In this document: in pieces, positions 6,396 through 36,398 of the stretch
Numbering within the stretch: the first letter of the stretch is position 1
Layout: every line of letters begins with the position of its first letter
Virus record (IMG/VR): IMGVR_UViG_2869965101_000006
Strand: one strand, 5' to 3'
Length of the DNA stretch: 36,398 nt
Source: a virus
Taxonomy: Duplodnaviria > Heunggongvirae > Uroviricota > Caudoviricetes
Position numbers and translations under genes: made by a program
Notes under the pieces: model-generated
What the model was told of the DNA's origin: nothing
Databases searched by the model: none
Seen by the model: only the letters and a program-made list of their open reading frames with translations

Positions 6396-6406
6396 TGACC
6401 ACTTCA

Positions 6407-8472: not shown

Positions 8473-9525
8473 TCAGGATGTGGGCTGGATGTCTAACAGT
8501 GCGTAAGGGTTAAAGCGGATCACCTCTTCGCCAAGCCAGTCATTGATGTGCTTCATGGCCTCCATGACGGGCATCAGCTCGTTAATTGCGTAAACCCGCG
8601 CGGCCTTCTCCACATCACCAAACGCACTTTTTTCACCCGGCATCGCCCCCATCAGTTGCGGCGGAACGCGGTGCGCAGCCAGCACATCATCACGGGATGC
8701 CGCCTTAACATTCATGAACTCATCCTTTGCGGTGATCTGCTGGAACGGCAAAATTTGCACCCCCTCTTTGCCCCCGTTGGGCGCATGAATGAGCACGTTT
8801 TTAAACGCACCACCACCACGCGCACCCTGTAGCGTTTCTTTCAGGGAGTCCATGCTTTCGCGGTTTACCTGCGCGGCACCGATGTAGATGATGCACCCGG
8901 CGTGGGATCCGTTGTCGTAATACAGTTTTCTGAACATGTCCGCCGAATGAGACAGGCTGGCCGAGAGTAATGCGCCGAGATATTCCGGCATGCCGTAGAT
9001 TTCCTGGTTAATGTCAGGATTCATCAGGTGACACACTTTGCCTGGGCGAAACTGAAACGCATCCTTGCCATCCTGCACATACCACCATGATTCAAGATCG
9101 CTTCCGCGTCGCATGTATTTCGCCAGGGCGTGCCGTAATTTAAGCGGTTCGCCGAGCATATTGCTTCGAAGCTCAAGGAATGCGTTACCGAACACAAACC
9201 AGTCCAGCGCCAGCGCCAGCGCCGAGAAATCCTACCGGGAAAGCAGCGGGTGCGGGATGTAGCAACCGAGCAATACATTGCGCTTAAAGTAAAGCGCAGA
9301 CTGATGCCAAGACGTTTGCCGGGCAGCTCTTGCCAGACCGTACCAGTCCACCGGGGGTTCATACCACCGCCCGTTATCAGCACAGTACATATTGTCCAGC
9401 AGGTCATGCCCGGTCAGGCGATAAGGACCATCAAATGTGAATGCACTGAGCGATGATTCTTTCCTGAGCGCATCAGCGAGATCAATGCGTGAACTCATGC
9501 GCACTTTTTTATTTTTTCTGCTCAT
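8473..9525 (-). pseudogene. portal protein (P2 Q-like) with in-frame TAG
   Basis: Two six-frame ORFs (9232..9525 and 8473..9195) are in the same frame, separated by a TAG at 9232..9234 on the minus strand. Confidence 0.8.
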
Positions 9526-11275
9526 CAGAACTCCATAACCGTGAAACGCTCGTTTTCTCCTTCGCCGCCAATCGGTTCGTTAATGACAGCAAGCATGGTT
9601 ACCCACGCAAGGTCGCCGTGGCTGATCCCCCTCGCTCGGTCCGTTTCGTAAGTGATAAAGCCGCCCGGTGTTTTCACCTTACGCACGGCGTTAAAGGCCG
9701 CGACCAGCTCGCGTTCGGCGCGATCGTATTCCCACCGCCCGGCACGCATTATTTGCAGCATTTTCAGTACCAGCGACCGTTTTGATGACAGCGTGAAGGT
9801 GTACGGAATAGCGGCAGGGAAAAACCGTTTCACTATCTGATAAACAGCCTCCCCGTTCCCGCCCGTCACATCAATGCCGATGTGTTCCACGTTGTAGCGA
9901 CACGTGAACTCTTCAATGACTCTGGCCTGTTCTTCAAACTCCAGCCCCTGAACGCGTCGCGTCTCCACCGTTCGAAAACGGCCACCAGGAACAGACGGAG
10001 GAACCACCACGGACACAGCGCCGCTGTCGCCGTTGCCACTGCTGCCGTTTGCGTCATACCCAATCCATACCGGACGATTCCCCATCGGGCGGGGAGCAAA
10101 AGGTTTCCAGTCTTTCCAGTCGTCGTATCCGTCAACGCCGCAGCCAATCAGGATATTCAGGTTAAATGCCGATTCCCCTTCGCGGACAAACTCGCACATA
10201 TAGAGATTGAGGAACTCGTCTTCGGTGTTTTCATCACGAATTTCGTCGATATCGGTGTGTTTCCAGCCGTGATTAACCACATCTTCCAGCGTGACAATTT
10301 GCCGCCACGTCCGGTCAGGGCAGATAAGCCCGTTATGCAGCGTTTTCCAGTCCACAGAAAAACGCTGGCGTTTATGCGAGGCCTTTTTCTCGTTCCAGCG
10401 GTCGCCGTTCCAGTAGGCGTATGCCTCGTGCGTTTCGGTGGATGGCGTGGAGAAGTAGGTGCGCCGCAGTCCGCTGAGGGTTGCCATAGCGCCAGCCACC
10501 TTGCGCAGTTCAGCAAAGCGACTGACCCAGAAAAATTCATCAAAATAAAAATTGCCCGTATAGGACTGTGCCGACGCAGCAGAAGTGCCGAGAAAATGCA
10601 GCTCTGCGCCGTTGGAGAGGATGATTTTATCGCCCCCTTTCAGCTCCACATCAACTTCAGCCGCGCCTTCTGAATAATGCTTTTAAACTGGAACGCCTGA
10701 CGACGCGACGCAGACAAAAAAATCTGGTTACGCTGGTAAGGTTGCGCCACATCGTCACGCAGCGCCATCAGCAGTGCTTCCTGTGCAAAATACCAGGTCG
10801 CCCCAATCTGTCGGGATTTCAGGATCATCCTGTTACGTATCCCGGCTTCCCTGCAAAGGGTCAGGGAGTCAAACCAGCCCCGCTGATGCCACTCCAGCCT
10901 GCTGATGATTTTTTCCCGCAGTGCGGCAATCTGTTCCGGCGTGAAATGATTTTTGAGTTTTTTCGCCCGGCCTTTCTTTCCTGCGGCCATCACATCCGGC
11001 TGGCCATCATGCAGCTTTTTAAGCTGCCGGGTCAGCAGGTCTATTTCCTTAAAGTCACCGCCTGTTTTATTCTGTTTTTCAGTAAGCTGGATGAGGCGCG
11101 CATCGATGGACTGCGTGACACGCTGCCCGGGTGGCGTTTCATCCCACTGGTCACGTTTTTTCCACGCATAAATCGTGTTCGGGTTTATTCCCATCAGACG
11201 TGATATTTCTGCGGGCGGATAACCCTGCCAGTAAAGTTGCCGCGCACGCTGGCGCACAAAAGCGTCCTGAATCAT
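9525..11275 (-). pseudogene. terminase large subunit (P2 P-like), frameshifted
   Basis: N-terminal ORF (10640..11275) and C-terminal ORF (9525..10649) are in different frames. Confidence 0.8.
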
Positions 11276-11885: not shown

Positions 11886-11921
11886 ACGTTTAACAGTATC
11901 CAGGGTGAAGGAGAAGGACGA

Positions 11922-17565: not shown

Positions 17566-17591
17566 TTATCGAATACCTCGGTTTACGAGAA
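17566..17591. other. gix/hix-type inversion crossover site, left copy inside the fibre gene
   Basis: TTATCGAATACCTCGGTTTACGAGAA matches the reverse complement of 21021..21046 at 21 of 26 positions, with an identical ACCTCGGTTTAC core. Confidence 0.6.
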
Positions 17592-18777: not shown

Positions 18778-19066
18778 GGGTTGAATTAGGTTGGTCAGAT
18801 TTCTATACCACGACACGAAAACCTTCAGCGGGAGATGTTGGTGCATATACGCGGGCAGAATGTAACTCAAGGTTTATTACAGGTATTCGCCTTGGCGGTC
18901 TGTCATCTGTTCAGACATGGAATGGTCCCGGCTGGTCTGACAGGTCAGGTTATGTCGTTACGGGTTCAGTTAACGGAAACCGTGATGAATTAATTGATAC
19001 AACACAGGCAAGGCCAATTCAGTATTGCATTAATGGGACGTGGTATAACGCGGGGAGTATTTAACG

Positions 19067-19600: not shown

Positions 19601-19628
19601 GAGAAGGCCCGATATTGGGCCTTAATTT

Positions 19629-20156: not shown

Positions 20157-20159
20157 AAT

Positions 20160-21020
20160 TTACACCTGTGCGACGTTATACCATGTGCCATTGATGTATT
20201 TTTGTATTGGTCTGAAGATGGCTTCATCATCGCCATCTACTTCACCAATGATTCTTAATCCGGTAATTGCGTGTCCGGCTTTTTCATAACGACCACCACG
20301 CGCCATCAATTGAACAACACGCGTACCCAGGCGAACATCTTTTACATAGCGTGAATCAAAATTCCCCCAGTTGCTGGGCTGTATCTGACCGTTAACAGAA
20401 AATATTACCGAGTTATCTGTATTTCGCTGGCTATAGAAATGCCATCCTGCCTCATCGCCTAACTCTGCAACTACTGGACGGGTTGAAGCACCCCATAAAT
20501 TAAACGTTGCATTCTTTGTGAAGTTGTTGGAGCTGGATAGCGTGAATTTTTTACCATCCCCGGCCTGAATATTTTTAAAAGCAATAGCCACTCCATTCTG
20601 AAAGCGGAATACACGCTGACTATTAGCATAAACATCCAGAATACCGTCTCCATTCTGTTTAAATCCGGTGTCATTATCACCAAGAACAATAGAGCTACCA
20701 CCTAACGCATTCGTCGAACCAACTCCAAGACTGCCATTAATGACAGCATTAACAAGAATATTTAGTGCATCCCATTTCAGCGTCATCAGGTCTTTTGTTG
20801 TGGTGCTCTGGCGGCTTCTCCATTTGAAATATTCATTGCCGTTGTCGCCTGTTTCAAACCACATGTATGAATCAGTGTCACCATCGGCATCATTTTTAAA
20901 TCCAATCTTCGCCCAGTCAGTATTTCGAATCCAGGCAAGGATTGAGTCATTTTCAAAAGTAAGCCCACCGGACAAGGTATCGCCATTTTTTTGCACGGCG
21001 TTACCAGCCCTGTTTACCGT
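20160..21020 (-). CDS. alternative tail fibre C-terminal segment, promoterless and start-less; expressed only after inversion
   Basis: Frame stays open on the minus strand from 20160 up to the gix site at 21021..21046; no ATG of its own. Confidence 0.65.
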   Translation of the reverse strand, partial: TVNRAGNAVQKNGDTLSGGLTFENDSILAWIRNTDWAKIGFKNDADGDTDSYMWFETGDNGNEYFKWRSRQSTTTKDLMTLKWDALNILVNAVINGSLGVGSTNALGGSSIVLGDNDTGFKQNGDGILDVYANSQRVFRFQNGVAIAFKNIQAGDGKKFTLSSSNNFTKNATFNLWGASTRPVVAELGDEAGWHFYSQRNTDNSVIFSVNGQIQPSNWGNFDSRYVKDVRLGTRVVQLMARGGRYEKAGHAITGLRIIGEVDGDDEAIFRPIQKYINGTWYNVAQV

Positions 21021-21046
21021 TTCCTGTAAACCGAGGTTTTAAATAA
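21021..21046. other. gix/hix-type inversion crossover site, right copy
   Basis: TTCCTGTAAACCGAGGTTTTAAATAA, closely resembling the Mu gix sequence as recalled; inverted partner at 17566..17591. Confidence 0.6.
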
Positions 21047-21100
21047 TGGCCGTTTCTGGCCTGCATGGCATGATTTGCGCTTTTGGACGGGAGATTCAGT

Positions 21101-21700
21101 GTGCTGATTGGCTATGTAAGGGTATCAACAAATGACCAGAATACAGACCTGCAACGAAACGCTCTTGTTTGTGCAGGATGTGAACAAATATTTGAAGATA
21201 AATTAAGCGGGACAAAGACAGACCGACCGGGATTAAAACGCGCTTTAAAGCGCCTTCAAAAAGGTGACACGCTGGTTGTCTGGAAACTGGATCGCCTCGG
21301 GCGAAGCATGAAACATCTGATTTCTCTCGTCGGGGAACTACGGGAGCGAGGGATTAATTTTCGCAGTCTGACCGACAGCATAGACACATCTTCTCCAATG
21401 GGGCGTTTTTTCTTCCACGTGATGGGTGCCCTGGCTGAAATGGAACGTGAATTAATTGTTGAACGTACACTGGCCGGGCTGGCGGCAGCGCGCGCAAGGG
21501 GGCGCACAGGCGGACGTCGACCGAAGCTGACAAAAGAACAGCATGAGCAAATAGCAAGGCTAATCAAAAACGGGCACGACAGAAAACAACTGGCAATAAT
21601 TTACGGCATTGGCACATCGACGATTTATCGTTATCACCCTGTAGGCGATATACAGACTGAAGAAACAACCGGGCAGACTCAGGAAAATGAAAACCGCTAA
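21101..21700 (+). CDS. Gin/Pin/Cin/Hin-family serine DNA invertase
   Basis: GTG start giving MLIGYVRVSTNDQ… with catalytic-serine motif and C-terminal HTH; near-identical to Mu Gin as recalled. Confidence 0.85.
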   Translation: MLIGYVRVSTNDQNTDLQRNALVCAGCEQIFEDKLSGTKTDRPGLKRALKRLQKGDTLVVWKLDRLGRSMKHLISLVGELRERGINFRSLTDSIDTSSPMGRFFFHVMGALAEMERELIVERTLAGLAAARARGRTGGRRPKLTKEQHEQIARLIKNGHDRKQLAIIYGIGTSTIYRYHPVGDIQTEETTGQTQENENR

Positions 21701-21718
21701 TCTGACCATTAGCGGTTT
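21689..21718. terminator. bidirectional stem-loop terminator between the convergent invertase and U genes
   Basis: AAAACCGCTAAT-ctgacc-ATTAGCGGTTTT with a T-run on the plus strand and an A-run on the other side. Confidence 0.6.
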
Positions 21719-21728
21719 TTGTGTTAAA

Positions 21729-22223
21729 TCAGAACAGCCCTTTAACTGAACTGGCCGCGCTGTTAAGAGATGATGTCACCTTATCTTTGAAGCCGGACAG
21801 CATATCACTGAACGATGAGGATTGCAGGCGCTCCCGCAAATCCTCATCACAGCGTTCAAGAGTCAGTGAAAATTCTATCTTTTTCGCCTTACCGTAGCGA
21901 TCAAACTCGGAGCGGGTCGTATTCGTTTCAGTCAGGACATACATGCCGTAAATCTGCCCGACGCCATCAATCAAAGGCCAGGGTCGTCCTGTATACGCCT
22001 GCGTGGTCAGCAGCGACAGCGACACTTCGCCACCTGTAATTTCAGGATAAAGCACACCAGAAAGAACGATGCGATCATCACCTGCACCGATATACTGCCA
22101 GCTTGCTGAACGGTTAACGCGTTCATTTTTCACATGCCGCCAGCTTTTGTTTTGCTGTAACTGCTGATGCGGCAGCGTGCGCAGCTCAAAAACAAACATG
22201 CCGTAGATCATCATCATGGCCAT
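21729..22223 (-). CDS. tail protein (P2 U-like)
   Basis: 164-aa ORF with recalled similarity to P2 gpU (…GMFVFELRTLPHQ…). Confidence 0.75.
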   Translation of the reverse strand: MAMMMIYGMFVFELRTLPHQQLQQNKSWRHVKNERVNRSASWQYIGAGDDRIVLSGVLYPEITGGEVSLSLLTTQAYTGRPWPLIDGVGQIYGMYVLTETNTTRSEFDRYGKAKKIEFSLTLERCDEDLRERLQSSSFSDMLSGFKDKVTSSLNSAASSVKGLF

Positions 22224-22229
22224 GACTCC

Positions 22230-25046
22230 TCAATCTTTATCGTAAAAACAGCCACGCCCGGCACGGGCGCGCCGTTCCATTTCTGCCCTGACCATTTCAC
22301 CGACCAGTTTCGCCAGTTCGCGGGGATTCTGCGTAACAACGTTATGCAGATGAACATGAATTTCACCACCAAATCCGGAGGCAACAGGCTCCCGGTTACG
22401 GGAAGTTACAGGAACTGATGCCACTGGAGATCGTATAGCCTCCGCCACCGGGCGGGAGCTGGCCGCAACAACAGGGACCAGCGCCGGAGGCAGCGGAGCC
22501 GGAACCACGGGTGTGATATTAATTGCGGGGGCAGGCTTACTGACCTGCGCAATCTTCCGCTCCTGCCACTCCCCACGAACAGCAAGTGCTCGGGGCAGGT
22601 TTTTAAAGACAATATCGCCGGGGCCAATGCGTTTTTTCGTCTCCTCAACCAGCTTACCTGTGTTATCAGCAATTTTGCTGAGTCTGCGCAGCGTACCGGT
22701 ATTGCTGTCTGTGAGCGGTTTATTGTCTTTGGGGTTATCACCTCCGGTGCCATTGCCATTTTCCACAGGCTTCGGCGGATTGATTTTCGCCAGGTCCCCC
22801 TGAAGCAAGGCAACCTTGTCCTGAAGAATGGCCGCACGCTGTGCGTCTTCGATTTTCTTGCGCGCCCTTTCCGCTTCATCCGGAAGCACACCAAGCTTTT
22901 CAAGTATCCACGCCAGCGTATCCAGCAACATTTTTGCAGGTGTCAGAACAAGTTGTAACGCACCGCCAAGAACGTTACCGAATATCTCGCCAGCACTGGT
23001 ACATTTATCCAGAGTTTCCTTGCTGGACTCCATCGGTGACAGCAGCGATTTAAACCAGTTAAACACCTGGCTGATCCCACTCCCGATTGCGTCAAAAACA
23101 GGACCAAACCGTTCAAATGTTTCGCGCAACGGGGTCAGCCTTTCCATAATCCCGCTGAACACCCCGGCAAAAAATGCCCTGATGGGATCCCAGTATTTCC
23201 AGATAAGAACGGCAGCTCCGGCAAGCGCAGCCACGATAAGACCAACCGGACTGAACAACGCCCCGATAGCGCCTCCCAGTAAAGAAACGGAACCCGTCAC
23301 CATTCCCCATAGTGCTGGCAGAACCCTGACAGCATTCATTGATCCGGTCAGGAGGGAAAAACCAAGACGCAGTTTTGCCAGCGGGCCAGCAAGCACACCA
23401 ATAGCCAGCGACAACGAGCCAACCGTTGCAGTCATTGCCAGCAATGCACCGCCTGCAATCAGTAGCTGGCGCGTCAGTGCGGGATGGGCCTGCGCCAGCG
23501 CCGTCACCTTTGATACCACACGCGTGAGCCACTGCGTGACAGAACGCAGCGGACCGTCAATCAGATCTGCAATGCGGATGCGCAACCCTTCCCATGCACT
23601 GCTGAGTGATTTCAGATCGCCGTCAAGGTTGTTGGCCATAACCTTTGCCGTGCGTTCAGCCTCACCGCGCGCGCCTTCAAGTTCTTTTCTCAGTTTGGGT
23701 AAGGAGCCGTCACCTGCCGCATCAACGAGGGCCATAAATGATGTGAAAGCCTCTTCTCCGGCAATGTCCTTAAAGAACGATACCCGGTCAACTTCCCCGT
23801 ATTTGCGGGTAGCTTTATAAAGGTCAGCCAGCACATCCTCCATCGGGCGCATTTTGCCCCCGGCATCCGAGACAGACACGCCAAGCTCTTTCAGCGCCTC
23901 TGCTGCCGCCTTTGGCGGTGATGCCAGACGAGCCAGGCTGGCACGCATTGCCGTACCAGCATCACTCCCCCTGATACCCATATTCGCCAGCACGCCCGCC
24001 ATCGCTGCGGCCTGCTCCAGAGATATTCCCAGCTTACCCGCCACCGGACCTGCATATTTCATGGTTTCACCCAGTGCGCGAAGGTCAGTGTTGGTACGGG
24101 TAAACGCTGCGGTGAGTGTGTCGCCGACCCGGTCCATCTGGTCAGCAGAAAGACCGAACTGCGTCAGAATATTTGAGCCAATATCCGCCGTCTCACCGAG
24201 GTCCATACCGCCAGCCGTTGCCATGCTCAGTACGCCAGGGAGCGCAGCCTGAATGGCCTGTGGTGTAAAGCCAGCCATTGCAAGAAATGCCTGTCCACTG
24301 GCGGCATCGCCTGCGGTGAACTGCGTTTCAGAGCAAAGTTTTAACGCCTGCTCACGCAGCGCCTTAAACTGCGGGCTGTTCTGGTCGATTCGCGTCAGTG
24401 CCTGAACGCGGAACATCTCTTTGCCGAACCCGATCGCAGGCTGCAAAAAACGCCCGGCAGCATAGCCGCCCGCCGCTGCCGCACCAATTGCCAGCGCACC
24501 ACCTGTTTTCAGTTTTCCCGCTGTTTCCTGCGCGCGCGAATACCGCTCACGCGCCCGTGTTACACGCGCAAGCGCCTGCCGTTCGCGTTCAAGCTGGTTG
24601 TTGTACTGTTCGGTGCGTCTGATGGCCTGCTGGATGGTGTTATCGCTGCCTGTCAGGGAAATGCCGTGGCGTTTCAGCTCTCCGCCAAGCTCCCGCATTT
24701 TCTGAATTTCCCGTGTGCGCGATTCATTCAGGCGTTCAAGCCGGGTGCTTAACTGCTGCATCAGCTTTTGTTGTTTTTCGCTGAGCACTGTACCCGTGCG
24801 TTGTAACTGATTAAGGGCGTTAAGCTGGCGTCGTGCTTTCACGATGCCCGCATCCGCTTTACTGACAGCGTCACGGGCGCGCTCAAATGATCGCGCCTGA
24901 CGCTCGAGATTTTTGATCGCCCCCTGCGTTCGCTGGATGGAGTCACCAAACTGCCCCATCAGGCGGCGGGCGTTTTCGGCAGGCCGGGTCAGCCTGTCAA
25001 CGGCGCTGAAAGCGACCCGGATATCAAGAGTCTTCATTGTCTGCAT
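22230..25046 (-). CDS. tail tape measure protein (P2 T-like)
   Basis: About 940 aa, Ala/Gly-rich with coiled-coil and hydrophobic stretches; intact ORF; start approximate. Confidence 0.85.
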   Translation of the reverse strand: MQTMKTLDIRVAFSAVDRLTRPAENARRLMGQFGDSIQRTQGAIKNLERQARSFERARDAVSKADAGIVKARRQLNALNQLQRTGTVLSEKQQKLMQQLSTRLERLNESRTREIQKMRELGGELKRHGISLTGSDNTIQQAIRRTEQYNNQLERERQALARVTRARERYSRAQETAGKLKTGGALAIGAAAAGGYAAGRFLQPAIGFGKEMFRVQALTRIDQNSPQFKALREQALKLCSETQFTAGDAASGQAFLAMAGFTPQAIQAALPGVLSMATAGGMDLGETADIGSNILTQFGLSADQMDRVGDTLTAAFTRTNTDLRALGETMKYAGPVAGKLGISLEQAAAMAGVLANMGIRGSDAGTAMRASLARLASPPKAAAEALKELGVSVSDAGGKMRPMEDVLADLYKATRKYGEVDRVSFFKDIAGEEAFTSFMALVDAAGDGSLPKLRKELEGARGEAERTAKVMANNLDGDLKSLSSAWEGLRIRIADLIDGPLRSVTQWLTRVVSKVTALAQAHPALTRQLLIAGGALLAMTATVGSLSLAIGVLAGPLAKLRLGFSLLTGSMNAVRVLPALWGMVTGSVSLLGGAIGALFSPVGLIVAALAGAAVLIWKYWDPIRAFFAGVFSGIMERLTPLRETFERFGPVFDAIGSGISQVFNWFKSLLSPMESSKETLDKCTSAGEIFGNVLGGALQLVLTPAKMLLDTLAWILEKLGVLPDEAERARKKIEDAQRAAILQDKVALLQGDLAKINPPKPVENGNGTGGDNPKDNKPLTDSNTGTLRRLSKIADNTGKLVEETKKRIGPGDIVFKNLPRALAVRGEWQERKIAQVSKPAPAINITPVVPAPLPPALVPVVAASSRPVAEAIRSPVASVPVTSRNREPVASGFGGEIHVHLHNVVTQNPRELAKLVGEMVRAEMERRARAGRGCFYDKD

Positions 25047-25187
25047 TCCCGCTACGAAGTGCCGCTCGCTCACGCCAGCTAACCACTTCGCAGGGCGTCA
25101 TCATGAAGATTTCGGCGGGCGACCAGTTAAAAATGGCGGCAATATCCGCCACCAGATCTTCGATGTGCTCAAAGCACACCAGGGTGA

Positions 25188-25562
25188 TTACGCTGCCGTC
25201 TCCTGCACGCTCTTCGCGCCAGAGTCTGGCTCGCTCATAAAATTTACAGCCACAGCGCACAACTGAATAAAATCGCGTGACGACATTTTTTTAATCATCA
25301 CTTCATCCAGTCGTGGCGAGGTCACGCGAGGCAACAGCGTGAACATGGTATCCGCTTTCAGATTCAGCACATCAGACAGCGACAGACCACGCAGGGATCC
25401 AGCCTGCTCAATAGCCCCGGTGATCTCCACATACGTGATTTTTTCGCCACCACGCTCAATTGGTCGGGTCAGTTTTACGCCACGTTCGACAGCCATATCC
25501 TCAACTGCCGTCACATTATCCGCCACGGTGTTATTCCGGGTTTCAGTATCGATGTCTTTCAT
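25188..25562 (-). CDS. tail assembly chaperone E, with a -1 frame extension (E') to 25024
   Basis: Overlapping ORFs 25188..25562 and 25024..25260 in 0 and -1 frames directly upstream of T; slippery candidates at 25239..25245 and 25286..25292. Confidence 0.65.
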   Translation of the reverse strand: MKDIDTETRNNTVADNVTAVEDMAVERGVKLTRPIERGGEKITYVEITGAIEQAGSLRGLSLSDVLNLKADTMFTLLPRVTSPRLDEVMIKKMSSRDFIQLCAVAVNFMSEPDSGAKSVQETAA

Positions 25563-25620
25563 CTGTTGTCTCCTTTTCAGTCAGAGGCGACGCACTGCGC
25601 CGCCAGCATATTACTTATCA

Positions 25621-26905
25621 GCCAAGCCCAAGCGCGGAACGGATGCGATCGGGCACAATGTCCTTGCCGTCCTTCGGTGATGCTGCCAACTTACTGATTT
25701 AGTGTATGATGGTGTTTTTGAGGTGCTCCAGTGGCTTCTGTTTCTATCAGCTGTCCCTCCTGTTCAGCTACTGACGGGGTGGTGCGTAACGGCAAAAGCA
25801 CTGCCGGACATCAGCGCTATCTCTGCTCTCACTGCCGTAAAACATGGCAACTGCAGTTCACTTACACCGCTTCTCAACCCGGTACGCACCAGAAAATTAT
25901 TGATATGGCCATGAATGGCGTTGGATGCCGGGCAACTGCACGCATTATGGGCGTTAGCCTCAACACGATTTTACGTCACTTAAAAAACTCAGGCCGCAGT
26001 CGGTAACCTCGCGCATACAGCCGGGCAGTGACGTCATCGTCTGCGCGGAAATGGACGAACAGTGGGGATACGTCGGGGCTAAATCGCGCCAGCGCTGGCT
26101 GTTTTACGCGTATGACAGGCTCCGGAAGACGGTTGTTGCGCACGTATTCGGTGAACGCACTATGGCGACGCTGGGGCGTCTTATGAGCTTGCTGTCACCC
26201 TTTGACGTGGTGATATGGATGACGGATGGCTGGCCACTGTATGAATCCCGCCTGAAGGGAAAGCTGCACGTAATCAGCAAGCGATATACGCAGCGAATTG
26301 AGCGGCATAACCTGAATCTGAGGCAGCACCTGGCACGGCTGGGACGGAAGTCGCTGTCGTTCTCAAAATCGGTGGAGCTGCATGACAAAGTCATCGGGCA
26401 TTATCTGAACATAAAACACTATCAATAAGTTGGAGTCATTACCCCGTCCTTCCGGTAAATGAAGTTCAGCAGGTCAATCTCCCACAACGGGCGATCGTTA
26501 ACACTCAGCTTGTAGTAGGTGTTTTAATGGCGTAAGTGTGTGATGTGGCTTCGCCCTGTTTGGCTTCCCCCATATCAATTTCCGTCACACGTCCGCGCAT
26601 TTCGACTTCATACAGGTCGCTTTCTGCATCGGTGTAGTATTCACCCGCAAAACGCAGCAGCGTGCCGTCAATCGTGCCGCCATACTTAAGGAACAGCTCA
26701 CGAACTGCGCCCCCATGACAAAGCTCGCATCAAGCGCGGAGTCGTCCAGACCGAGATCAATACTTACCGCACCCATCATGCCACCACCCCGGTAGCTGTC
26801 GGTTTTGCGCGTCAGCTTAGGCAGAGTGACGGACGTCACATTACCCACTTCGTTTTCACCATCCACAAACAGCGTAAAAAAGCGAAGATGTTTTGGCACA
26901 GCCAT
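25621..26905 (-). pseudogene. tail tube (P2 FII-like) destroyed by IS1 and frameshifts
   Basis: N-terminus (…SVTLPKLTRK…DLGLDD…) matches FII; homology then changes frame at least twice (around 26500 and 26700) and is split by IS1. Confidence 0.75.
25676..26443 (+). mobile_element. IS1, second copy, 768 bp, with 9-bp target duplication CCGTCCTTC
   Basis: Identical to the copy at 18010..18777, same orientation; duplication at 25667..25675 and 26444..26452. Confidence 0.9.
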
Positions 26906-28089
26906 CAGGCACCTCCCAGCACCGCAAATGCGGGTTCAAAGTATTCATCAGTAAACGTCTGGTAAAGCTCCATGTCTTCCAGTGGCGGAACGGGCGTATA
27001 TTTGTAGCGAATACGCACACGTCCCTGACGTAAATCCGTGGTGCTGTTATCCACCACGTCATACCAGCACTCCGCGCCAATCAGTTTCCCGGCAGTCACC
27101 AGTGAATCCAGTTTTGCCCTGATGGCACTGATAACATCCTTCACATTCGCAGGCGTCAGTGGACTGTCGATGGTTTCAAACTGCGCTTCCGCAATTGAAT
27201 CAGCCAGCACCTGTGCGGTTCGGGTATACACCTCAAAGATGTAGGCGTTCGTTTCCGGTGTGCGGTTACCCCAGAAGCGGACCCCGTTGCGACGAATAAT
27301 GGTCGTGATTTCTTTGTTGTTGAGGCTGTTGGCATCGCTGTCTTCGGCCTGCAACGACCAGAACACATGCCTCGACATCCCCAGCACATTTTTAACCGGA
27401 ACGTTGGACAGCGATTTGTGCCATCCCTGTTCATGGTCAATGTACGCACGAAGGCCGCACGCATAGGCAGGCGCGGGGAACGTTTCGTTTTTGCCATTTT
27501 TCGGGTTGTAGGCGATGAAGTCCGGCCATAAGAGCATCACCTCACGTTCGTTGAATTTCTGGCGGTAGGTAATTGCCTCGGCCATCGTGTTACAGCCATG
27601 ACATGAGGCATACACAAACGCGCGCAGTTTATCTGCAATCACGCACAGGGATTTTGTTACCGCCTCCGTGTCCAGCTCCGGCGCGGCCAGAATACGCGGA
27701 CGGTATCCGATGCTTTCATCCTGCTCTGCAACAAGCAGCGCATACATCCCCGTATAGCTGCCGTCATCCTCAGAACCACCGATAACCAGTTGATCCTGCG
27801 TCTTTCCGTCTTCTTCTTTGTGTTCAGCCACGCGAACGACGATCACCTTTGTGCTCACCTGGTCTGCGATGGCCTTAAGCGCACGATAAAGCGTCCCCGT
27901 TGTCCCGCATTTTCCCAGCACGTCATTGACGCGGGTCAGCAGTGTGGGCTTGTTCAGCGGGAACAGCTTCGCGTCCGCATCATCCGCCGTTGCCACGATA
28001 CCGATAACGCTGGAATCAACATCGTTAATCGCTGTTACCAGGTCGGTATTCTCCGTAACACGGGCACCATGAAAACGAGTTTCACTCAT
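26905..28089 (-). CDS. tail sheath protein (P2 FI-like)
   Basis: 394-aa intact ORF with sheath-like sequence. Confidence 0.85.
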   Translation of the reverse strand: MSETRFHGARVTENTDLVTAINDVDSSVIGIVATADDADAKLFPLNKPTLLTRVNDVLGKCGTTGTLYRALKAIADQVSTKVIVVRVAEHKEEDGKTQDQLVIGGSEDDGSYTGMYALLVAEQDESIGYRPRILAAPELDTEAVTKSLCVIADKLRAFVYASCHGCNTMAEAITYRQKFNEREVMLLWPDFIAYNPKNGKNETFPAPAYACGLRAYIDHEQGWHKSLSNVPVKNVLGMSRHVFWSLQAEDSDANSLNNKEITTIIRRNGVRFWGNRTPETNAYIFEVYTRTAQVLADSIAEAQFETIDSPLTPANVKDVISAIRAKLDSLVTAGKLIGAECWYDVVDNSTTDLRQGRVRIRYKYTPVPPLEDMELYQTFTDEYFEPAFAVLGGA

Positions 28090-28246
28090 AGCTTCAGCCC
28101 CTTGTATCCGTTAAATGATTCAGCAACAATCATCACCCACCACGCGCGTAATCTCACCCCTGCGCCGTTCTCCCGCCACGGCGACAACAAAAAGCAGTAA
28201 CCCCCTCCGCACGCACATGCGACCATGCCGCACAGGGAGGGAGTAG

Positions 28247-29356
28247 ATGACCGACACCACCATGCAATTGCTCAGTCAGGGCACGGCCCCCGTGAAAATG
28301 CCGGATTTTGATATTCTCTCGGAGGGTAAAACGCTGTCAGGCGTGGCGGAGCGCCTGATGAGCCTGTAACTGACCGACAACCGGGGATTTGAGGCGGACC
28401 AGCTCACCATCACGCTGGATGATGCGGATGGTCAGTTGCAGCTACCGCCACGGGGCGCGCGTCTGACGGTTCTCATTGGCTGGAAAGGGGAACCGCTGAC
28501 AGAAAAAGGCACTTACATTGTTGATGAAATCGCTCACGAAGGACCGCCGGACAGGCTGACTGTTTCAGCCAGAAGCGCAGATTTTCGGGATGAATTTAAC
28601 GTTAAACGTGAGGTGTCCTGGCATGATGTGACCGTTGAGCGTGTGGTATCCGCCATCGCTCATCGATACGGTCTGAAACCGCAAATCAGCGAAATGCTGA
28701 TGGATATCGAAATCGACCACGCCGACCAGACCGAAGAAAGCGACATGTCCTTTCTTACGCGCATGGCGGAAATGCTGGGAGCAATCGCCACGGTAAAAAG
28801 CGGCAATCTGTTATTCATCATGCCAGGTGGTGGCGTGAACGCACAGGGGCAGCCGTTGCCCTCGTTCGCCATTACACGCAGCAGCGGCGATCGCCATCAG
28901 TTCCGCATTGCTGACCGCGAGGCGTATACGGGGGTACGCGCCTACTGGCTTGATCTTAATTACGGGAAAAAGAAAAAAGTCAGCGTGAAACGCCGCAAAC
29001 CGCCAAAACCCAAAAAGGAGAAAAGCAGCAGTCGGGAAGGCGACTATATGGAAGGTGCGGAAGGCAACGTGTTTGTGTTACGCAAGACTTATCAGAACGA
29101 GCAGGCAGCAAGACGCGCAGCGGCGGCAAAGTGGCAGCAGCTACAACGCGGAGCCGCATCATTCTCCATCACGCTGGCGCGTGGTCGTGCAGAACTCTAT
29201 CCCGAAATGCATGGCACAGTGACAGGCTTTAAAAGCGAGATTGATTATCAGGACTGGATTATTGCAAAAGCCGAGCACACCATTGATAACAGCGGCTTTA
29301 CCACGCAGCTTGAACTTGAAGCAAAAATCCCGGAATGGATAGCAGAAACAGAATAA
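28247..29356 (+). pseudogene. tail protein D (P2 D-like) with in-frame TAA
   Basis: ATG at 28247 after a GGGAGGGAG RBS; in-frame TAA at 28367..28369 inside the conserved …LTDNRGFEADQL… motif; the rest (28436..29356) is open. Confidence 0.75.
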
Positions 29357-29508
29357 ATCTCTTAAAAATATTATTTTTGAGATGTGCTTCTACACTGACA
29401 GTAAGAACAAAAGATAATGTATCAGCCCACTAGATGTCAGAGGTTGGGGCATCAACCAGATGCTAACAATAATACGGATGTTTTTCCCACATGACAGAGG
29501 AAGTCAAG

Positions 29509-29514
29509 TATAAT
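29509..29514 (+). promoter_or_regulatory. candidate -10 element (TATAAT) for the cargo ORF
   Basis: Perfect TATAAT about 90 nt upstream of the 29605 start in an AT-rich intergenic region; no convincing -35. Confidence 0.3.
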
Positions 29515-29604
29515 CTTCACAGTCCATCCCGTCCAAGGGAATATGACTCAATAGTAAAAGTTCCAGTTTAGTTAGTAGACCCACACTTTATAGAAGAGTA
29601 ATTC

Positions 29605-32600
29605 ATGATTGGACAATTTTTAAGTGCAACAGAGATTTTAGCAAAGAACTATGTTCGTAATAAAATGGTTAAAAATCCATTTTATTCGAATTTAAAATGG
29701 AATTTTATTGAAAAAAACATCATAAGATTAACATCCTCACCGGTTAAATCAGTACTTTGCATATCAGCTTTTTCATTTGTACTACTTTATGTTGGATATT
29801 TAAACGAATTATTTATAAAAAATAATCTTTTACATTATTTCCCGTTTAGGCATTCATTAACCGAATGGCAAACAACCATTTTAAGTGGCCAATTGACAAT
29901 TATTGGTATTGTATACCCCCTTGTTATAGGTTTAGTAAGTATCTTATTCCAAAAAAAGGCAGATAGAAAAATAGCCCAAACTGCTTATCAGCGTTACTCA
30001 GGATTCATGCTTGCTGGACTCAGCGGGCTTTTCTTATCAGGATTTATACTTCTCAGTGTACTAATTAAAACTGTCTTTGGAAGTTATCTTTATGGTATAG
30101 CTTGTCTAATCAGCATATTATGGCTTTTGATAAACATAGTTCTTTCTATTTGGTTCTTTATCGTGAGTCTTGAAATTCTTGATGATGTAAAACGGCAAAT
30201 AATTATAAAGCGATACATTGCCTTCGAAATAGTAATGCCCCATATTTGTAACAAAATCTCAGCCAAGCTTAGGTTATACCCTATCTATCAAAAACATAAC
30301 TATTCAAATTTAGAAATCAAGCAAGCCGATTACAAAGGAGAATACATATCTGTGGCTAGCAGTTATTCTAAGGAAGATGAGTTAAGTTTATATCACCGTC
30401 CTTTTCAACTTACTCTTAATCTTATTAATTACCAACTAAAAAAGAAGAATCATTTTGCGTCATTTGTCATTGGTGATAATCGTACAAAAGAAACAGAATC
30501 CACGGGTAAGATACTTTTTAGCGTTAAAAATATCAAACCAGACAGCTTATTAATAAAAATACTTAAGCAATGTTTTTATAGGGCTCCGATTAAAGGAGGA
30601 GATTTTTCCGTAAGTCTTACAATGCAGGCTATAACAGCAGATACGTATATGTATCTGCGGGATTCTGATCTCATTAGTTTTGACAATGCTATCTCTGCAT
30701 TAATTAATAACTTTAATAATCTCTGCGATTTGTATTTTTTTCAAGATGATAATACCAACAATAACTTCTTACTGATCACTACAGAATTATTTGAACGGAG
30801 TTTTCAATATGAGTTTTCAGATGAAGTTTATAAAATATCAAATAATTCCATGGATAAAATTAATCTTTCTGAAAGATTTTTTGAATTATGTCTTTGGAGC
30901 GGAGTGCGTATTATCAATAATAGAAAACATCTTATCAGCAATGAACTTTGTATCTATATGGGAATTACTCGTTCACAATGGTCAATATTAACAGAATGGT
31001 TCCGAAACAACCAATCACTCTTAAATGCCTCGCTTCGTTCACGTTATAATCGTATATTAAGAACCTATACCACTGTTTGGGAGCAATATCAAGAAAGCAT
31101 AAACTTTCGTTTCTGCAATACAGAGAATTCAGATTTATTTGAATTATTTTGCAAAACGCAACTACAAGAACTTCCATCGATGATTATTGATGCAACACAG
31201 ACTCGCGATCCTTCTACTATTGATACAGCCGTCGATCTTATTAACCGATGGCAGCACTCAATGAATATTGACAGCCATTCGGTAGAAAAATACAGTTACA
31301 AAGGCCAGCTTTTTAACCCGGGTTTTTTCATATCCAAAAAACTAAACTTCAATTCAGACAGAGAGTGGTTCAATATTGCCATCATAAATGCGTTGACTGA
31401 CATGCGTATATGCACATGTCTTTATCTGACATCAAGAATCAATACTTCTGACAAACTAATGACACATTACATTAAACTTATTTTAGAGGGTAAACTTATT
31501 GACCAAACCGGTGGATATGAAACTCCCACTGAAGAAATTGATAATGCAAGCCAACTAATCAAGATATTAATTAGAATCTGCCTGTGGACATGGTCTGAAA
31601 ATATGGAACACAATGGGTGGATGAATAGTTTAGCAAGGCGTTTACGTGACTATGATAAAACAGACATGGTGATGGGCAGAGTTTACAGTAATGTTTTTGA
31701 CTGTGGATTTATTGATATGGAACAATCATGGGTTCAGCTATTATTAATTTTTTCTAACAAGAACGATAGCGTATCAAAAGAAATAAAAGAAGCAATAGAA
31801 AACAACTATATAACATATCGTGAGAAGCAACGACTCATTGGAGTATTATCAAAAATTTGTAACTCCATCGAATACACTAAAATCAAGCTGACTTTAACAT
31901 TGGACGATCTCCAAACAAAAAAAGAAAACTTAAGAAAGTTGCTTCAAGAGCATATTAACATGCTAAAGAAAGATCTTGATATGAGACTTCAGGATGCTGC
32001 CATAGATGTACATCGACTAGATAGCACTGCACGTAAAACATCAGAACATCTTCGTAAACGCATCAAGAAAACGCTCCCTCTTTCACTTTTTAAATCTATT
32101 GATTTTAAGCAGGCTAGCGATTGTTTCACAAAACATAAGATATCTATTAAGATAGATAAAGAACCGTATGCCGAAGGAATAGAATCCATCCCTTATATCA
32201 ATGAAGGTGATATTCAAGCAGACTTAATTCTCAAGGACATCCAGAGAATAATACTTTCAAATTTATTTAGCACTGGCTGTTCGCAACATACCGTAATAGA
32301 AGATTTCAATATGTTGATTGATCACATAAAATCATCTGCTGACTTGGCTGGCAAACTGGTTCTTGTGATGAGTAAAGAGATCTTTCAGCAATATAATCGT
32401 ATGCTTTTCGATAATCCCAACCTCAGAGAACTAATGAGAAAAAATGATGATGGCTCTATGAACATAACTACTGAATCCGGTACCCGTAAGGTTTACTTCT
32501 TACCATTTGTTAATCAACCATTTTCTCTTGTGGTAAAGGATAACTACTTCACTAAATTAATTATTAGAGAATATGATAATAATAAGTTAGTAAATGTCAC

Positions 32601-32724
32601 TTCAGAGAATATCAAAAGTGACTCAGATAAATTCAAGCTAACTCTTAACTATGAGTTGAATGTAGTATTTGAAGGAAACGCTGATTTAAAAATAGCTCAC
32701 TCGCAAAGAGTGACATCAGAATAA
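29605..32724 (+). CDS. large hypothetical membrane-anchored protein (1039 aa), AT-rich cargo gene
   Basis: Uninterrupted ORF; four hydrophobic helices in the first ~190 aa then ~850 aa of Asn/Lys/Ile-rich soluble sequence; no Walker A, HxH or other obvious catalytic motif by eye. Confidence 0.75.
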   Translation: MIGQFLSATEILAKNYVRNKMVKNPFYSNLKWNFIEKNIIRLTSSPVKSVLCISAFSFVLLYVGYLNELFIKNNLLHYFPFRHSLTEWQTTILSGQLTIIGIVYPLVIGLVSILFQKKADRKIAQTAYQRYSGFMLAGLSGLFLSGFILLSVLIKTVFGSYLYGIACLISILWLLINIVLSIWFFIVSLEILDDVKRQIIIKRYIAFEIVMPHICNKISAKLRLYPIYQKHNYSNLEIKQADYKGEYISVASSYSKEDELSLYHRPFQLTLNLINYQLKKKNHFASFVIGDNRTKETESTGKILFSVKNIKPDSLLIKILKQCFYRAPIKGGDFSVSLTMQAITADTYMYLRDSDLISFDNAISALINNFNNLCDLYFFQDDNTNNNFLLITTELFERSFQYEFSDEVYKISNNSMDKINLSERFFELCLWSGVRIINNRKHLISNELCIYMGITRSQWSILTEWFRNNQSLLNASLRSRYNRILRTYTTVWEQYQESINFRFCNTENSDLFELFCKTQLQELPSMIIDATQTRDPSTIDTAVDLINRWQHSMNIDSHSVEKYSYKGQLFNPGFFISKKLNFNSDREWFNIAIINALTDMRICTCLYLTSRINTSDKLMTHYIKLILEGKLIDQTGGYETPTEEIDNASQLIKILIRICLWTWSENMEHNGWMNSLARRLRDYDKTDMVMGRVYSNVFDCGFIDMEQSWVQLLLIFSNKNDSVSKEIKEAIENNYITYREKQRLIGVLSKICNSIEYTKIKLTLTLDDLQTKKENLRKLLQEHINMLKKDLDMRLQDAAIDVHRLDSTARKTSEHLRKRIKKTLPLSLFKSIDFKQASDCFTKHKISIKIDKEPYAEGIESIPYINEGDIQADLILKDIQRIILSNLFSTGCSQHTVIEDFNMLIDHIKSSADLAGKLVLVMSKEIFQQYNRMLFDNPNLRELMRKNDDGSMNITTESGTRKVYFLPFVNQPFSLVVKDNYFTKLIIREYDNNKLVNVTSENIKSDSDKFKLTLNYELNVVFEGNADLKIAHSQRVTSE

Positions 32725-32732
32725 TATCTTTG

Positions 32733-32763
32733 ACGGCGCTCCTTAGAGTGCCGTTCGTTTATT
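32733..32763 (+). terminator. rho-independent terminator after the cargo ORF
   Basis: Stem ACGGCGCTC / GAGTGCCGT (one G-U pair), 4-nt loop, then TCGTTTATT. Confidence 0.5.
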
Positions 32764-32859
32764 AACTAATGCTAAAAATCATTATATAGAGAAAGTCATG
32801 TTTAAATCTTAGAGAATACAACCTAGAATAGTGCAAGCACTACAATAAGAGAGGTCGCT

Positions 32860-33096
32860 ATGTTCCGTTGTCCGCTTTGTGGCGCATCTGCCCGTATCCG
32901 CACCAGTCGTCCGGAAAATGATTCAAACACCGTGAGACAAAAGTATTATCAGTGTAACAATCTAGAATGCGGCGTATGTTTCTCAACACTGGAAGCCTTC
33001 CACAAATTCACTTCAAAGCACGCCTCCCCCATTCACTCATCAGAGGGCATCCCGTTGGATTTGCCCCTATATTTCCAGACATCTGTTATCACTTAA
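32860..33096 (+). pseudogene. ogr: late-gene activator ogr, 3' end replaced by the IS2 insertion
   Basis: MFRCPLCGASARIRTSR…YYQCNNLECGVCFS zinc-finger N-terminus like P2 Ogr; from codon 66 the frame is IS2 sequence; original 3' end at 34388..34452. Confidence 0.8.
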
Positions 33097-33972
33097 CCCA
33101 TTACAAGCCCGCTGCCGCAGATATTCCCGTGGCGAGCGATAACCCAGCGCACTATGCGGATGCCATTCGTTATAATGCTCGAACGCCTCTGCAAGGTTCT
33201 TTGCTGCCGTTAACCCGTCTGGTTTGGGCATGATACTGATGTAGTCACGCTTTATCGTTTTCACGAAGCTCTCTGCTATTCCGTTACTCTCCGGACTCCG
33301 CACCGCCGTGTTCTTCGGTTCAAGTCCCAACATCCGGGCGAACTGGCGTGTTTCATTAGCCCGGTAGCATGAACCATTATCCGTCAGCCACTCCACTGGA
33401 GACGACGGAAGATCGTTGCCGAAGCGGCGTTCCACCGCTCCCAGCATGACGTCCTGTACTGTTTCACTGTTGAAGCCGCCGGTAGTCACCGCCCAGTGCA
33501 GTGCCTCACGATCACAGCAGTCCAGCGCGAACGTGACACGCAGTCTCTCTCCGTTATCACAGCAGAACTCGAACCCGTCAGAGCACCATCGCTGATTGCT
33601 TTCTTTCACGGCCACTCTGCCTGTATGTGCCCGTTTCGATGGCGGTACAGCAGGTTTTCGCTCAAGCAACAGGGCATTCTGGCGCATGATCCGGTAAACA
33701 CGTTTGGCATTGATCGCAGGCATACCATCAAGTTCTGCCTGTCTGCGAAGCAGCGCCCATACCCGACGATAACCATACGTGGGCAGCTCTCCGATAACAT
33801 GGTGTATACGGAGAAGCACATCCGTATCATCAGTGTGACGACTGCGGCGGCCATCCATCCAGTCATCGGTTCGTCTGAGAATGACGTGCAACTGCGCACG
33901 CGACACCCGGAGACAACGGCTGACTAAGCTTACTCCCCATCCCCGGGCAATAAGGGCGCGTGCGCTATCCAC
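33067..33972 (-). CDS. insD: IS2 InsD (OrfB, DDE transposase)
   Basis: 301-aa ORF; its 3' end is the sequence duplicated in the remnant at 3580..3844. Confidence 0.85.
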
Positions 33973-34336
33973 TTTTTTGCCCGTCCATATTCAACGGCTT
34001 CTTTGAGGAGTTCATTTTCCATCGTTTTCTTGCCGAGCAGGCGCTGGAGTTCTTTAATCTGCTTCATGGCGGCAGCAAGTTCAGAGGCAGGAACAACCTG
34101 TTCTCCGGCGGCCACAGCAGTAAGACTTCCTTCCTGGTATTGCTTACGCCAGAGAAATAACTGGCTGCTACACCATGTTGCCGGGCAACGAGGGAGACCG
34201 TCATCCCCGGTTCAAAGCTCTGCTGAACAATTGCGATCTTTTCCTGTGTGGTACGCCGTCTGCGTTTCTCCGGCCCTAAGACATCAATCATCTGTACTCC
34301 AATGACTAGTCTAAAAACTAGTATTAAGACTATCAC
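33930..34336 (-). pseudogene. insC: IS2 insC (orfA) with internal frameshift
   Basis: orfA is split into two overlapping ORFs (34064..34336 and 33930..34115) in different frames. Confidence 0.6.
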
Positions 34337-34642
34337 TTATTTAAGTGATACTGGTTGTCTGGAGATTCAGGGGGCCAGTCTACCCGTGGCATGAACTGCC
34401 AACTTCACACAGAGGAAACAATCAGATGAGTTTGCCCTTACCTCAGAATTAACGAGCAGAATTGCCGGAGTAACAAAAAAGCGATAGATTACGCGCGGGT
34501 GCCTTTCGGCTGATGGTCGGAGGGAATACCTGAAGGCCAGATGTGGAAAGGCCCCGGAAAACATTTTTGTTTAACCGAGGCCCTAACCGTCTACCCTAAG
34601 CAAGTGATAGGTTAGCGCCTCCCCGAAAAAGGAGCAAGCGCT

Positions 34643-34783
34643 ATGTCGCAAAAATCGCTTACGGCCATCACGTTCTGCGTGACGGCAATCCTCATCATCT
34701 GGATGCTGCACGGTTCGCTGTGCGAAATACGGATGAGCTTCTGGGGAGCGGAGTTTGCGGCGTTCTTACAGTGTAAGCAGTAA
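34643..34783 (+). CDS. Hok/Gef-family type I toxin (46 aa)
   Basis: AAAAAGGAG RBS; small hydrophobic peptide with the family signature …SLCEIR…EFAAFLQCK. Confidence 0.6.
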   Translation: MSQKSLTAITFCVTAILIIWMLHGSLCEIRMSFWGAEFAAFLQCKQ

Positions 34784-34870
34784 GGAAACCGCGACGGGGG
34801 AGCAATCCCCCGTCAATCGGTTGCCAGGGTAAGGTCGATAAGGCACCCTATCTCACAGACATGAACAACA

Positions 34871-34905
34871 AACCCGCAGCGTAAAAACTGCGGGGTTTCT
34901 TTTTG
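34871..34905 (+). terminator. rho-independent terminator downstream of the hok-like gene
   Basis: Stem CCCGCAG / CTGCGGG with 8-nt loop, followed by GTTTCTTTTT. Confidence 0.6.
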
Positions 34906-35201
34906 GTGTCCTCACCGACTTGAAACAGTGATCAGACTATAAGACAAAGCCCACAATGTAGCGGGCTTACTCCCGTTACTTTATTCGTACCCCTTATAAT
35001 GGGGTGTTAGCCAGCCAGACCCGGCATGATTACTGCCCCCAGTCGTCCATGATCCGGGGGGTGATGTCACCGGGTCTGGTGGGGCGCTGGTAACCGCTAA
35101 TAGGGGTCAGGTCAGGCATTTTTGCCGGGACCGTCTGTAACGTGGATGCCGGTACCTGCTCCCCGTGGTTATCTGGTTAACCCATATACAAGGGAGACAG
35201 A
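34906..35201 (+). ncRNA. candidate left-end non-coding region of an IS110-family element (possible bridge/guide RNA)
   Basis: About 300 bp without an ORF immediately upstream of an IS110-family recombinase gene; boundaries not determined. Confidence 0.3.
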
Positions 35202-36398
35202 ATGACCGAATCCAGCGATTACGAATCCGTCCAGGTCTTTATCGGCGTTGATGTCGGTAAAGATACGCATCACGCTGTTGCCATTAATCGTTCAGGTAAA
35301 CGCCTGTTCGATAAAGCATTACCCAACGACGAAAACAAACTCAGGTCGCTAATATCTGACCTGAAACAACATGGTCAGATACTGCTGGTTGTTGATCAGC
35401 CAGCTACCATCGGTGCGTTACCTGTCGCCGTTGCCCGCTCAGAAGGAGTCCTTGTCGGATACCTCCCTGGACTGGCCATGCGCCGCATAGCCGACTTACA
35501 CGCCGGTGAAGCTAAAACTGATGCTCGTGACGCTGCCATCATTGCCGAAGCTGCCCGTACCCTGCCTCACGCGCTACGCACGCTGAAACTGGCTGACGAG
35601 CAAATCGCCGAACTCTCCATGCTCTGCGGCTTCGATGATGATCTTGCCGCACAGACAACGCAGGCCAGCAACCGTATCCGCGGCCTTCTGACCCAGATAC
35701 ATCCGGCACTGGAGCGCGTTCTCGGTCCGAGACTTGAGCACCCGGCGGTACTCGATCTTCTCCAGCGATATCCCTCACCAGAAAAACTCGCTTCGCTGGG
35801 TGAGAAGAAGCTGGCAGCCCAGCTCTGCAAACTTGCGCCTCGTCTGGGTAAACGCCTTGCAGCAGACATAGCTCAGGCACTGGCCGAACAAACCGTCGTC
35901 GTTCCCGGCACGAATGCCGCTGCCGTAGTACTGCCACGTCTGGCACTCCAGCTCATCACGCTGCGTAAGCAAAGAGACGAGGTGGCGCTTGAGGTAGAAC
36001 AGCGAGTTCTTGCTCACCCTCTTTACCCGGTCCTGACCAGTATGCCCGGAGTCGGTGTCAGGACCGCAGCCAGACTCCTCACCGAGGTCGCCTGCCGCGC
36101 CTTCGCCTCTGCCGCACATCTCGCTGCTTATGCTGGCCTTGCGCCGGTAACTCGGCGATCCGGCTCGTCAATACGCGGTGAGCATCCCTCGCGACGGGGT
36201 AATAAAGCTCTCAAACGGGCGTTGTTCCTGTCGGCCTTCGCCGCGCTCAGGGATCCGCTCTCCAGGGCTTACTACACCCGCAAAATGAGTCAGGGAAAAC
36301 GACACAATCAGGCGCTTATCGCCCTGGCGAGACGACGCTGCGACGTTCTGTTCGCCATGATGCGCGACGGGACTTTTTATACCCCGCAGGGGTCATAA
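35202..36398 (+). CDS. IS110-family (DEDD) transposase/recombinase
   Basis: 398-aa ORF; N-terminal FIGVDVGKDTHH RuvC-like motif and C-terminal …SMPGVGVRTAARLL… region; GGAGACAG RBS; stop coincides with the window end. Confidence 0.8.
   Translation: MTESSDYESVQVFIGVDVGKDTHHAVAINRSGKRLFDKALPNDENKLRSLISDLKQHGQILLVVDQPATIGALPVAVARSEGVLVGYLPGLAMRRIADLHAGEAKTDARDAAIIAEAARTLPHALRTLKLADEQIAELSMLCGFDDDLAAQTTQASNRIRGLLTQIHPALERVLGPRLEHPAVLDLLQRYPSPEKLASLGEKKLAAQLCKLAPRLGKRLAADIAQALAEQTVVVPGTNAAAVVLPRLALQLITLRKQRDEVALEVEQRVLAHPLYPVLTSMPGVGVRTAARLLTEVACRAFASAAHLAAYAGLAPVTRRSGSSIRGEHPSRRGNKALKRALFLSAFAALRDPLSRAYYTRKMSQGKRHNQALIALARRRCDVLFAMMRDGTFYTPQGS

Follow-up and report, generated by a model that had tools for sequence, protein, structure and literature searches.

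An inherited ochre codon in tail gene D of a decaying P88-like Shigella prophage

Introduction

How should we read an ochre codon that falls early in a phage tail gene, when the reading frame is otherwise open from its start to its end? The question is raised by gene D in the window, by which we mean the whole stretch of DNA analyzed here, 36,398 nucleotides long (IMG/VR record IMGVR_UViG_2869965101_000006). Such a codon could mark a dead gene. Alternatively, translation could restart downstream of it, the codon could be read through, the true start of the gene could lie after it, or the codon could be an error in the record.

These possibilities leave different traces in the homologs of the gene, in the sequence around the stop, and in the rest of the prophage. 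Taking them together, D has very probably become a pseudogene through a nonsense mutation, now fixed, in a decaying Shigella prophage of the P88-like kind (Xuanwuvirus, P2-related). The mutation is inherited rather than recent, and it is one of about ten lesions that the prophage carries. The features that enter the argument are collected in Table 1.

Table 1. Positions in the window of the parts of gene D, of its neighbors, and of lesions in the prophage.
Feature	Position	Strand	Evidence
Ribosome-binding site GGGAGGGAG (28235-28243) and ATG start (28247-28249) of D	28235..28249	+	Sequence; anti-SD energy; same start in P88 and RefSeq
Residual N-terminal ORF of D, 40 codons, ended by the ochre	28247..28369	+	ORF list; gene callers give a 40-aa ORF in Shigella-type loci
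Ochre codon 41, derived A at 28368, ancestral TCA (Ser)	28367..28369	+	Alignment; ETEC4088 difference list; 55-mer test
Rest of the D frame, codons 42-369 and stop, including the 306-codon ORF reported by gene callers from TTG 28436	28370..29356	+	ORF list; PF05954 on the 306-aa product
Tail sheath, intact, 394 aa, divergent neighbor of D	26905..28089	-	ORF list; tblastn; gene calls
Tail tube remnant, IS1-truncated, 1-bp deletions at ~26522 and ~26710	26444..26905	-	Three tblastn HSPs in different frames; a 106-aa ORF called
IS1, 768 bp, in the 3' part of the tube gene, ~9 bp target duplication	25676..26443	+	Self-BLAST 100% repeat; NCBIfam IS1; Pfam InsA/DDE_Tnp_IS1
Second identical IS1, in the currently expressed C-terminal tail-fiber segment	18010..18777	+	Self-BLAST; flank mapping
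IS2 (IS3 family, ~1.33 kb, 5-bp target duplication) splitting ogr	33056..34382	-	Matches annotated 'IS3-like element IS2 family transposase'
Junction of the 3.4-kb deletion	11898..11912		ETEC4088 block map; tblastn
Portal amber, codon 98, CAG>TAG	9232..9234	-	ETEC4088 differences
Large terminase frameshift, 1-bp deletion at 10665	10664..10666	-	tblastn; indel list

Gene D and its relatives

By ORF analysis, the D frame runs on the + strand from the ATG at 28247 to a TAA at 29354-29356, which makes 370 codons, and the TAA at codon 41 is the sole internal stop among them. The first-pass annotation had described D as open over 28247-29356 except for this one codon, and both its coordinates and its description are correct. 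The stop is found in the context ...RLMSL*LTDNRGFEADQL..., where close relatives read RLMSLSLTDNRGFEADQL. The first ORF after the stop begins at a TTG (28436) and would encode 306 amino acids.

What kind of gene is D? Both an intact relative and the 306-aa remnant match PF05954 (Phage_GPD) with 60.4-60.6 bits (60.6 for the remnant, for a cut-off of 30.1), and the D product matches PHROG 52, 'tail protein', with an E-value of 1e-164. Against P2 gpD, to which the P2 record assigns a part in tail formation, the D product has 52% identity end to end and is colinear, the N-terminal motif included. Among proteins of solved structure, the best match is R2 pyocin baseplate chain C (6u5h), with an E-value of 8.6e-41 over residues 18-356; since that alignment already begins at query residue 18, the N-terminus of D belongs to the folded hub. 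In the pyocin, the central complex PA0628-PA0616 is the counterpart of gp27-gp5 in T4, that is, of the hub and the spike (PMC10811340).

At the nucleotide level, D is 96% identical to the inducible coliphage P88 and to other Xuanwuvirus phages, and up to 99.7% identical to prophage copies in 1,384 of 5,426 complete E. coli genomes. D is by descent a member of the gpD/PF05954 family of baseplate hubs, and it is one in the form of a pseudogene, with the frame of the family interrupted at codon 41.

P88 gpD and the E. coli prophage relatives (ETEC4088, O104:H4) are similar to the window in most respects. They share with it 96-99.7% nucleotide identity in D, the same start, the sheath gene upstream on the opposite strand, and a variable cargo gene, ogr and hok downstream; the E. 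coli prophages adjoin ihfA-pheST. The window also has the gene order of the P88 group (tail fiber, invertase, U-T-E-tube-sheath on the opposite strand, D, hok), which together with the 96% identity over D is what makes this a P88-like prophage. Unlike the window, these relatives have an intact D with TCA (Ser) as codon 41, and the window prophage is without many other genes.

P2 and the R2 pyocin are more distant comparisons. In P2 gpD, an essential tail protein (the baseplate hub), the motif LTDNRGFEADQL is invariant and the Pfam match is above threshold, but the site of codon 41 holds a Thr. The order FI-FII-E-T-U-D-ogr is colinear in P2, whereas in the P88 group sheath-tube-E-T-U lie on the strand opposite to D (loci L013 and L014 serve for this comparison). 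The R2 pyocin hub (PA0628-type, gp27-like) is like D in sequence and in belonging to a hub-plus-spike architecture (PMC10811340), and it is unlike D in coming from a functional tailocin, in being distant in sequence, and in having no premature stop. In the window, as in the P88-like group, the block 21729-28089 (-) and D at 28247-29356 (+) diverge from an intergenic region of 157 bp.

Codon 41 in homologs of D

An alignment with D homologs, which the first-pass annotation had proposed as the check, places the stop at the site of a sense codon inside the conserved motif, and the statement of that annotation that homologs have a sense codon there is borne out. Four close E. coli relatives (ETEC4088, GDSC2BY4G, O104:H4 C227-11 and RIVM_C040348; loci L001-L004) have TCA at this position, and all 370 codons of their D frames are open. 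Codon 41 encodes Ser also in the gpD of phage P88, and the site is a Thr in both P2 gpD (RLMSMTLTDNRGFEADQL) and the R2 pyocin hub (RLLKLTLLDKPGMESDSL). Relative to intact genes that are 99-99.7% identical to D, the stop amounts to one base, C>A at 28368.

The two states of that base have very different frequencies. We searched the 5,426 complete E. coli genomes by megablast with a 55-nt query centered on 28368, in such a way that every 28-nt seed word must include that base. The C-centered 55-mer is found at 1,380 places in 1,266 genomes, and the A-centered 55-mer has 0 matches in the same 5,426 genomes. An exact scan for the TAA 50-mer in a one-genome-per-species collection, among whose species representatives the Shigella lineage is probably absent, has 0 matches and is uninformative on this point.

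Because A has no matches and C has 1,380, and because the relatives have Ser or Thr, the stop is, on the evidence of these alignments and searches, a derived state, best described as one C>A transversion at 28368. The base lies in the N-terminal motif that is best conserved across the family. A derived in-frame stop where orthologs have a sense codon is the mark of a nonsense pseudogene. A programmed recoding site, on the other hand, would keep its stop in functional homologs, and the intact relatives examined all have Ser or Thr instead.

Translation after the stop

Could a functional product still be made? Among the alternatives, the one that survives best, although we consider it very improbable, is that translation reinitiates at TTG 28436 or at another downstream codon, and produces a truncated gpD that is still partly functional, perhaps as a hub fragment that has been co-opted or acts as a dominant negative. 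The first-pass annotation had mentioned a restart at 28436 that would give an N-terminally truncated product. The ORF is indeed there: its 306 codons are open in every copy seen, its product keeps the PF05954 match, and the identical 306-aa product occurs in 444 blocks of the assembly collection. That the TTG is used as a start is the part of the suggestion that is unsupported. The anti-SD duplex energy there is weak, -6.3 kcal/mol, versus -11.6 kcal/mol at ATG 28247, which is the strongest among all in-frame candidates, and there is no in-frame ATG after the stop before codon 150 of D. The 63 residues that would be absent contain LTDNRGFEADQL, the motif best conserved in the family, and belong to the hub chain whose structure has been solved for the pyocin. 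The genes for the partners of such a fragment (tube, fiber, ogr, capsid) are destroyed.

Nor does an open ORF by itself speak for selection. The divergence among these sequences is 0.2-0.3%, at which only ~0.1 further stops are expected, and therefore an ORF that is still open after the stop is not evidence of selection or function; one of the loci (L016) has two amino-acid changes within it. A particular form of the same idea, and one to which we attach a still smaller probability, has the 306-codon ORF expressed from TTG 28436 as a truncated hub that would block the tail assembly of superinfecting P2-like phages. If that were true, what we call a pseudogene would be a domesticated anti-phage factor.

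No more probable than that anti-phage role is readthrough of the ochre at codon 41, by a suppressor tRNA or by programmed recoding, to give a full-length gpD. The D frame downstream is intact and in register, as readthrough would need it to be. But functional relatives have a sense codon at this place, which means that no recoding site is conserved there, and searches over the whole window find no tRNA gene and no Rfam recoding element at the stop (the only Rfam match is an IS3-type ALIL pseudoknot at 4891-5007). Of the three stop codons, TAA is the one that leaks least in enterobacteria.

Finally, the true start of D could lie downstream of the stop, with the upstream 40 codons non-coding, which the first-pass annotation had named as the finding that would overturn its reading. 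We give this practically no credence. What speaks for it is that PGAP/RefSeq, in many E. coli genomes (ETEC4088, O104:H4 and others), places there an 801-nt CDS that starts at the equivalent of 28556, a CTG at codon 104, under the name 'contractile injection system protein, VgrG/Pvc8 family'. However, the full 370-codon ORF is open in those same genomes, which makes the late PGAP start of gpD an annotation artefact; a downstream true start derived from that annotation is rejected, as the full ORF there is both open and conserved. The equivalent of the start at 28247, the one with the strong SD, is also used in P88 and in some RefSeq annotations of intact genes, where the gene appears at full length. 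Residues 1-63 of D, which hold the most conserved motif of the family, are conserved as protein sequence in P88 and as far away as P2 and the R2 pyocin hub. In the late-start records, PGAP also adds a spurious antisense partial pseudogene (the two annotations are at 3354-3446 and 3407-4207 in L001, and at the same positions in L003).

Inheritance of the stop

An error of sequencing or assembly in one record, which a single-base difference from the relatives might suggest, can be set aside as the origin of the TAA, since 19 loci from independent assemblies, with different flanks and private SNPs, carry the same codon. These are all of the 19 Shigella-type loci that we fetched, from NCBI complete and draft assemblies, two Logan assemblies (separate sequencing runs) and three IMG/VR contigs, and in all of them codon 41 is the sole internal stop in the D frame as compared. 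The lesion is real and heritable. The part of the window from 19605 to 36398 is 100% identical to CP026762.1, and CP001063.1, the chromosome of S. boydii CDC 3083-94 (PMC2974192), is 99.94% identical.

The 19 loci come in at least three structural forms. One form is like the window. A second, represented by L016, has the TAA, the same indels in the tube gene and the IS2 in ogr, and neither of the two IS1 copies. The third form is much reduced (L015, L018, L021 and L023-L027), and it contains only a stub of the tube gene, the sheath, D, an IS1-broken cargo gene and the ogr::IS2; in it the TAA occurs together with the ancestral G at 28666. The TAA and the IS2 in ogr are common to all structural variants seen. 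Decay of D has also continued after the stop: besides the two additional amino-acid changes of L016, there is a 1-bp indel in the first codons of D in L023.

As L016 has the TAA and neither IS1, the stop is older than the IS1 insertions. A later event can also be placed. In CP001063.1 and in one IMG/VR contig (L007 and L017), the 7,666 bp between direct IS1 copies are absent and a single IS1 is left. What CP001063.1 lacks is 18778-25675 of the window, a span that equals the spacing between the two IS1 copies, which indicates that recombination between them deleted the invertase, U, T and E genes in CDC 3083-94. The order of events is the stop, then the IS1 insertions, then the IS1-IS1 deletion in CDC 3083-94. 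As far as the comparison of these loci goes, the stop also predates the split of the structural lineages, and it has been inherited ever since.

Other lesions of the prophage

Is D an exception in an otherwise functional prophage? Mapped against the intact ETEC4088 prophage (by a block map, tblastn, an indel list and gene calls), the window prophage has at least nine disabling lesions besides the D stop. The insertions, the frameshifts and the second nonsense codon are given in Table 1. The IS2 leaves ogr, the late-gene activator, in two fragments at 32860-33055 and 34383-34449. The 3.4-kb deletion has taken with it the C-terminus of the scaffold, the major capsid, the small terminase (gpM), head completion, the tail gene X and the holin. 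In place of the early and replication region, from 3580 to ~6400, there are nested fragments of IS3-family elements, and an IS110-family transposase gene occupies 35202-36398.

This is not a complete phage. Deletion has removed its genes for capsid, gpM, head completion, X and holin; disruption affects portal, terminase, tube, fiber, D and ogr; and the replication region consists of IS fragments.

Over 18 genes, the window and ETEC4088 differ by 22 synonymous, 25 non-synonymous and 2 nonsense changes, counts that are small and to which both lineages contribute. Random substitution in those 18 genes would produce 3.9% nonsense changes, or 1.9 of 49 expected. That so large a part of the differences is non-synonymous, and that 2 are nonsense, fits relaxed constraint.

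The 3.4-kb deletion has also made a fusion ORF, gpO'-M15, at 11397-12314 (+), with matches to Phage_GPO_N and Peptidase_M15_4. In this chimera of 305 aa, the first 161 residues of the scaffold gpO are in frame with an M15 endolysin, and there is a short microhomology at the junction. In the replaced early region, a 265-bp piece (3580-3844) has exactly the sequence of one end of the ogr IS2 copy (33056-33320), and after the IS fragments come a truncated ParM gene and an Ead/Ea22-like gene (6392-7012).

The expansion of IS elements and the accumulation of pseudogenes in Shigella are well known. The window follows the same pattern of prophage and gene decay, with IS1, IS2, IS3-family and IS110-family elements, deletions, frameshifts and nonsense codons within a single 36-kb prophage. 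Its source is S. boydii-type chromosomes, and nothing sets it apart from the general pattern.

What the stop means for D and for the prophage

We propose the following history. In the D gene of a P88-like prophage, Ser-41 (TCA) became an ochre (TAA) by a single C>A transversion, so that translation from the native ATG, with its strong SD, would end after 40 residues. There would then be no gp27-like baseplate hub, which the contractile tail requires for its nucleation; going by the sequence, a functional gpD protein is probably absent. Fixation of the mutation very probably took place in a common ancestor of many Shigella chromosomes, that of S. boydii CDC 3083-94 among them, in a prophage presumably decaying without selection, where the D stop is one of at least ten disabling lesions. 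The C>A change itself was presumably neutral.

Even with a repaired D, no tail or virion would form, because the tube, fiber, capsid, portal, terminase, holin and Ogr are missing or broken. The prophage is defective as a whole, and the D stop is therefore one lesion among about ten. It lies within the known kinds of lesion, a textbook nonsense pseudogene, and an ordinary one.

In practice, D at 28247-29356 should be annotated as a pseudogene with an internal stop; the label 'tail protein', whether for 306 aa or for 266 aa, should not be used for it. The prophage itself is best regarded as a remnant that is not inducible. The TAA and the IS2 in ogr could together act as a minor marker of the clade, and they could time-stamp the order of decay events. 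Beyond correct annotation, the significance of the stop is small.

Neighboring features

The tail fiber of this prophage has an invertible segment at 17562-21050, with two alternative fiber C-termini, each accompanied by its own assembly protein, in the orientation opposite to that in ETEC4088. The Hin/Cin-type invertase (21101-21697) is intact and 100% identical to that of ETEC4088, and the fiber arm that is expressed is the one broken by IS1. We do not count an apparent stop in the alternative C-terminal segment as one more lesion, because it coincides with the inversion crossover and belongs to the orientation that is not expressed. The constant part of the fiber has three tandem repeats of 132 nt (44 codons) at 16829-17224 (+), which are 100%, 87% and 61% identical to the first copy.

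Between D and ogr there is a long ORF of 1039 aa (29605-32724, +), with a GC content of 31-39% and N-terminal hydrophobic stretches. It has no match in Pfam, NCBIfam, PADLOC or PHROGs, and RefSeq names it 'MFS transporter' or 'hypothetical'. It is present in 5 of the 5,426 complete E. coli genomes, always in the same prophage slot, which in the O104:H4 prophage holds a DUF3800 gene in its place; in the reduced Shigella-type remnants the ORF is broken by IS1. This looks like a cargo gene in a variable slot between D and ogr, possibly one with a role in defense.

The P2 late-promoter motif TGT-N12-ACA has 10 matches in the window versus 9.7 expected, that is, it occurs at chance level. The window-wide search for this motif finds none in the intergenic region between the sheath and D. 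Two of the motifs, at 29383-29400 and 29479-29496, are found in the AT-rich spacer of 248 bp upstream of the 1039-aa ORF.
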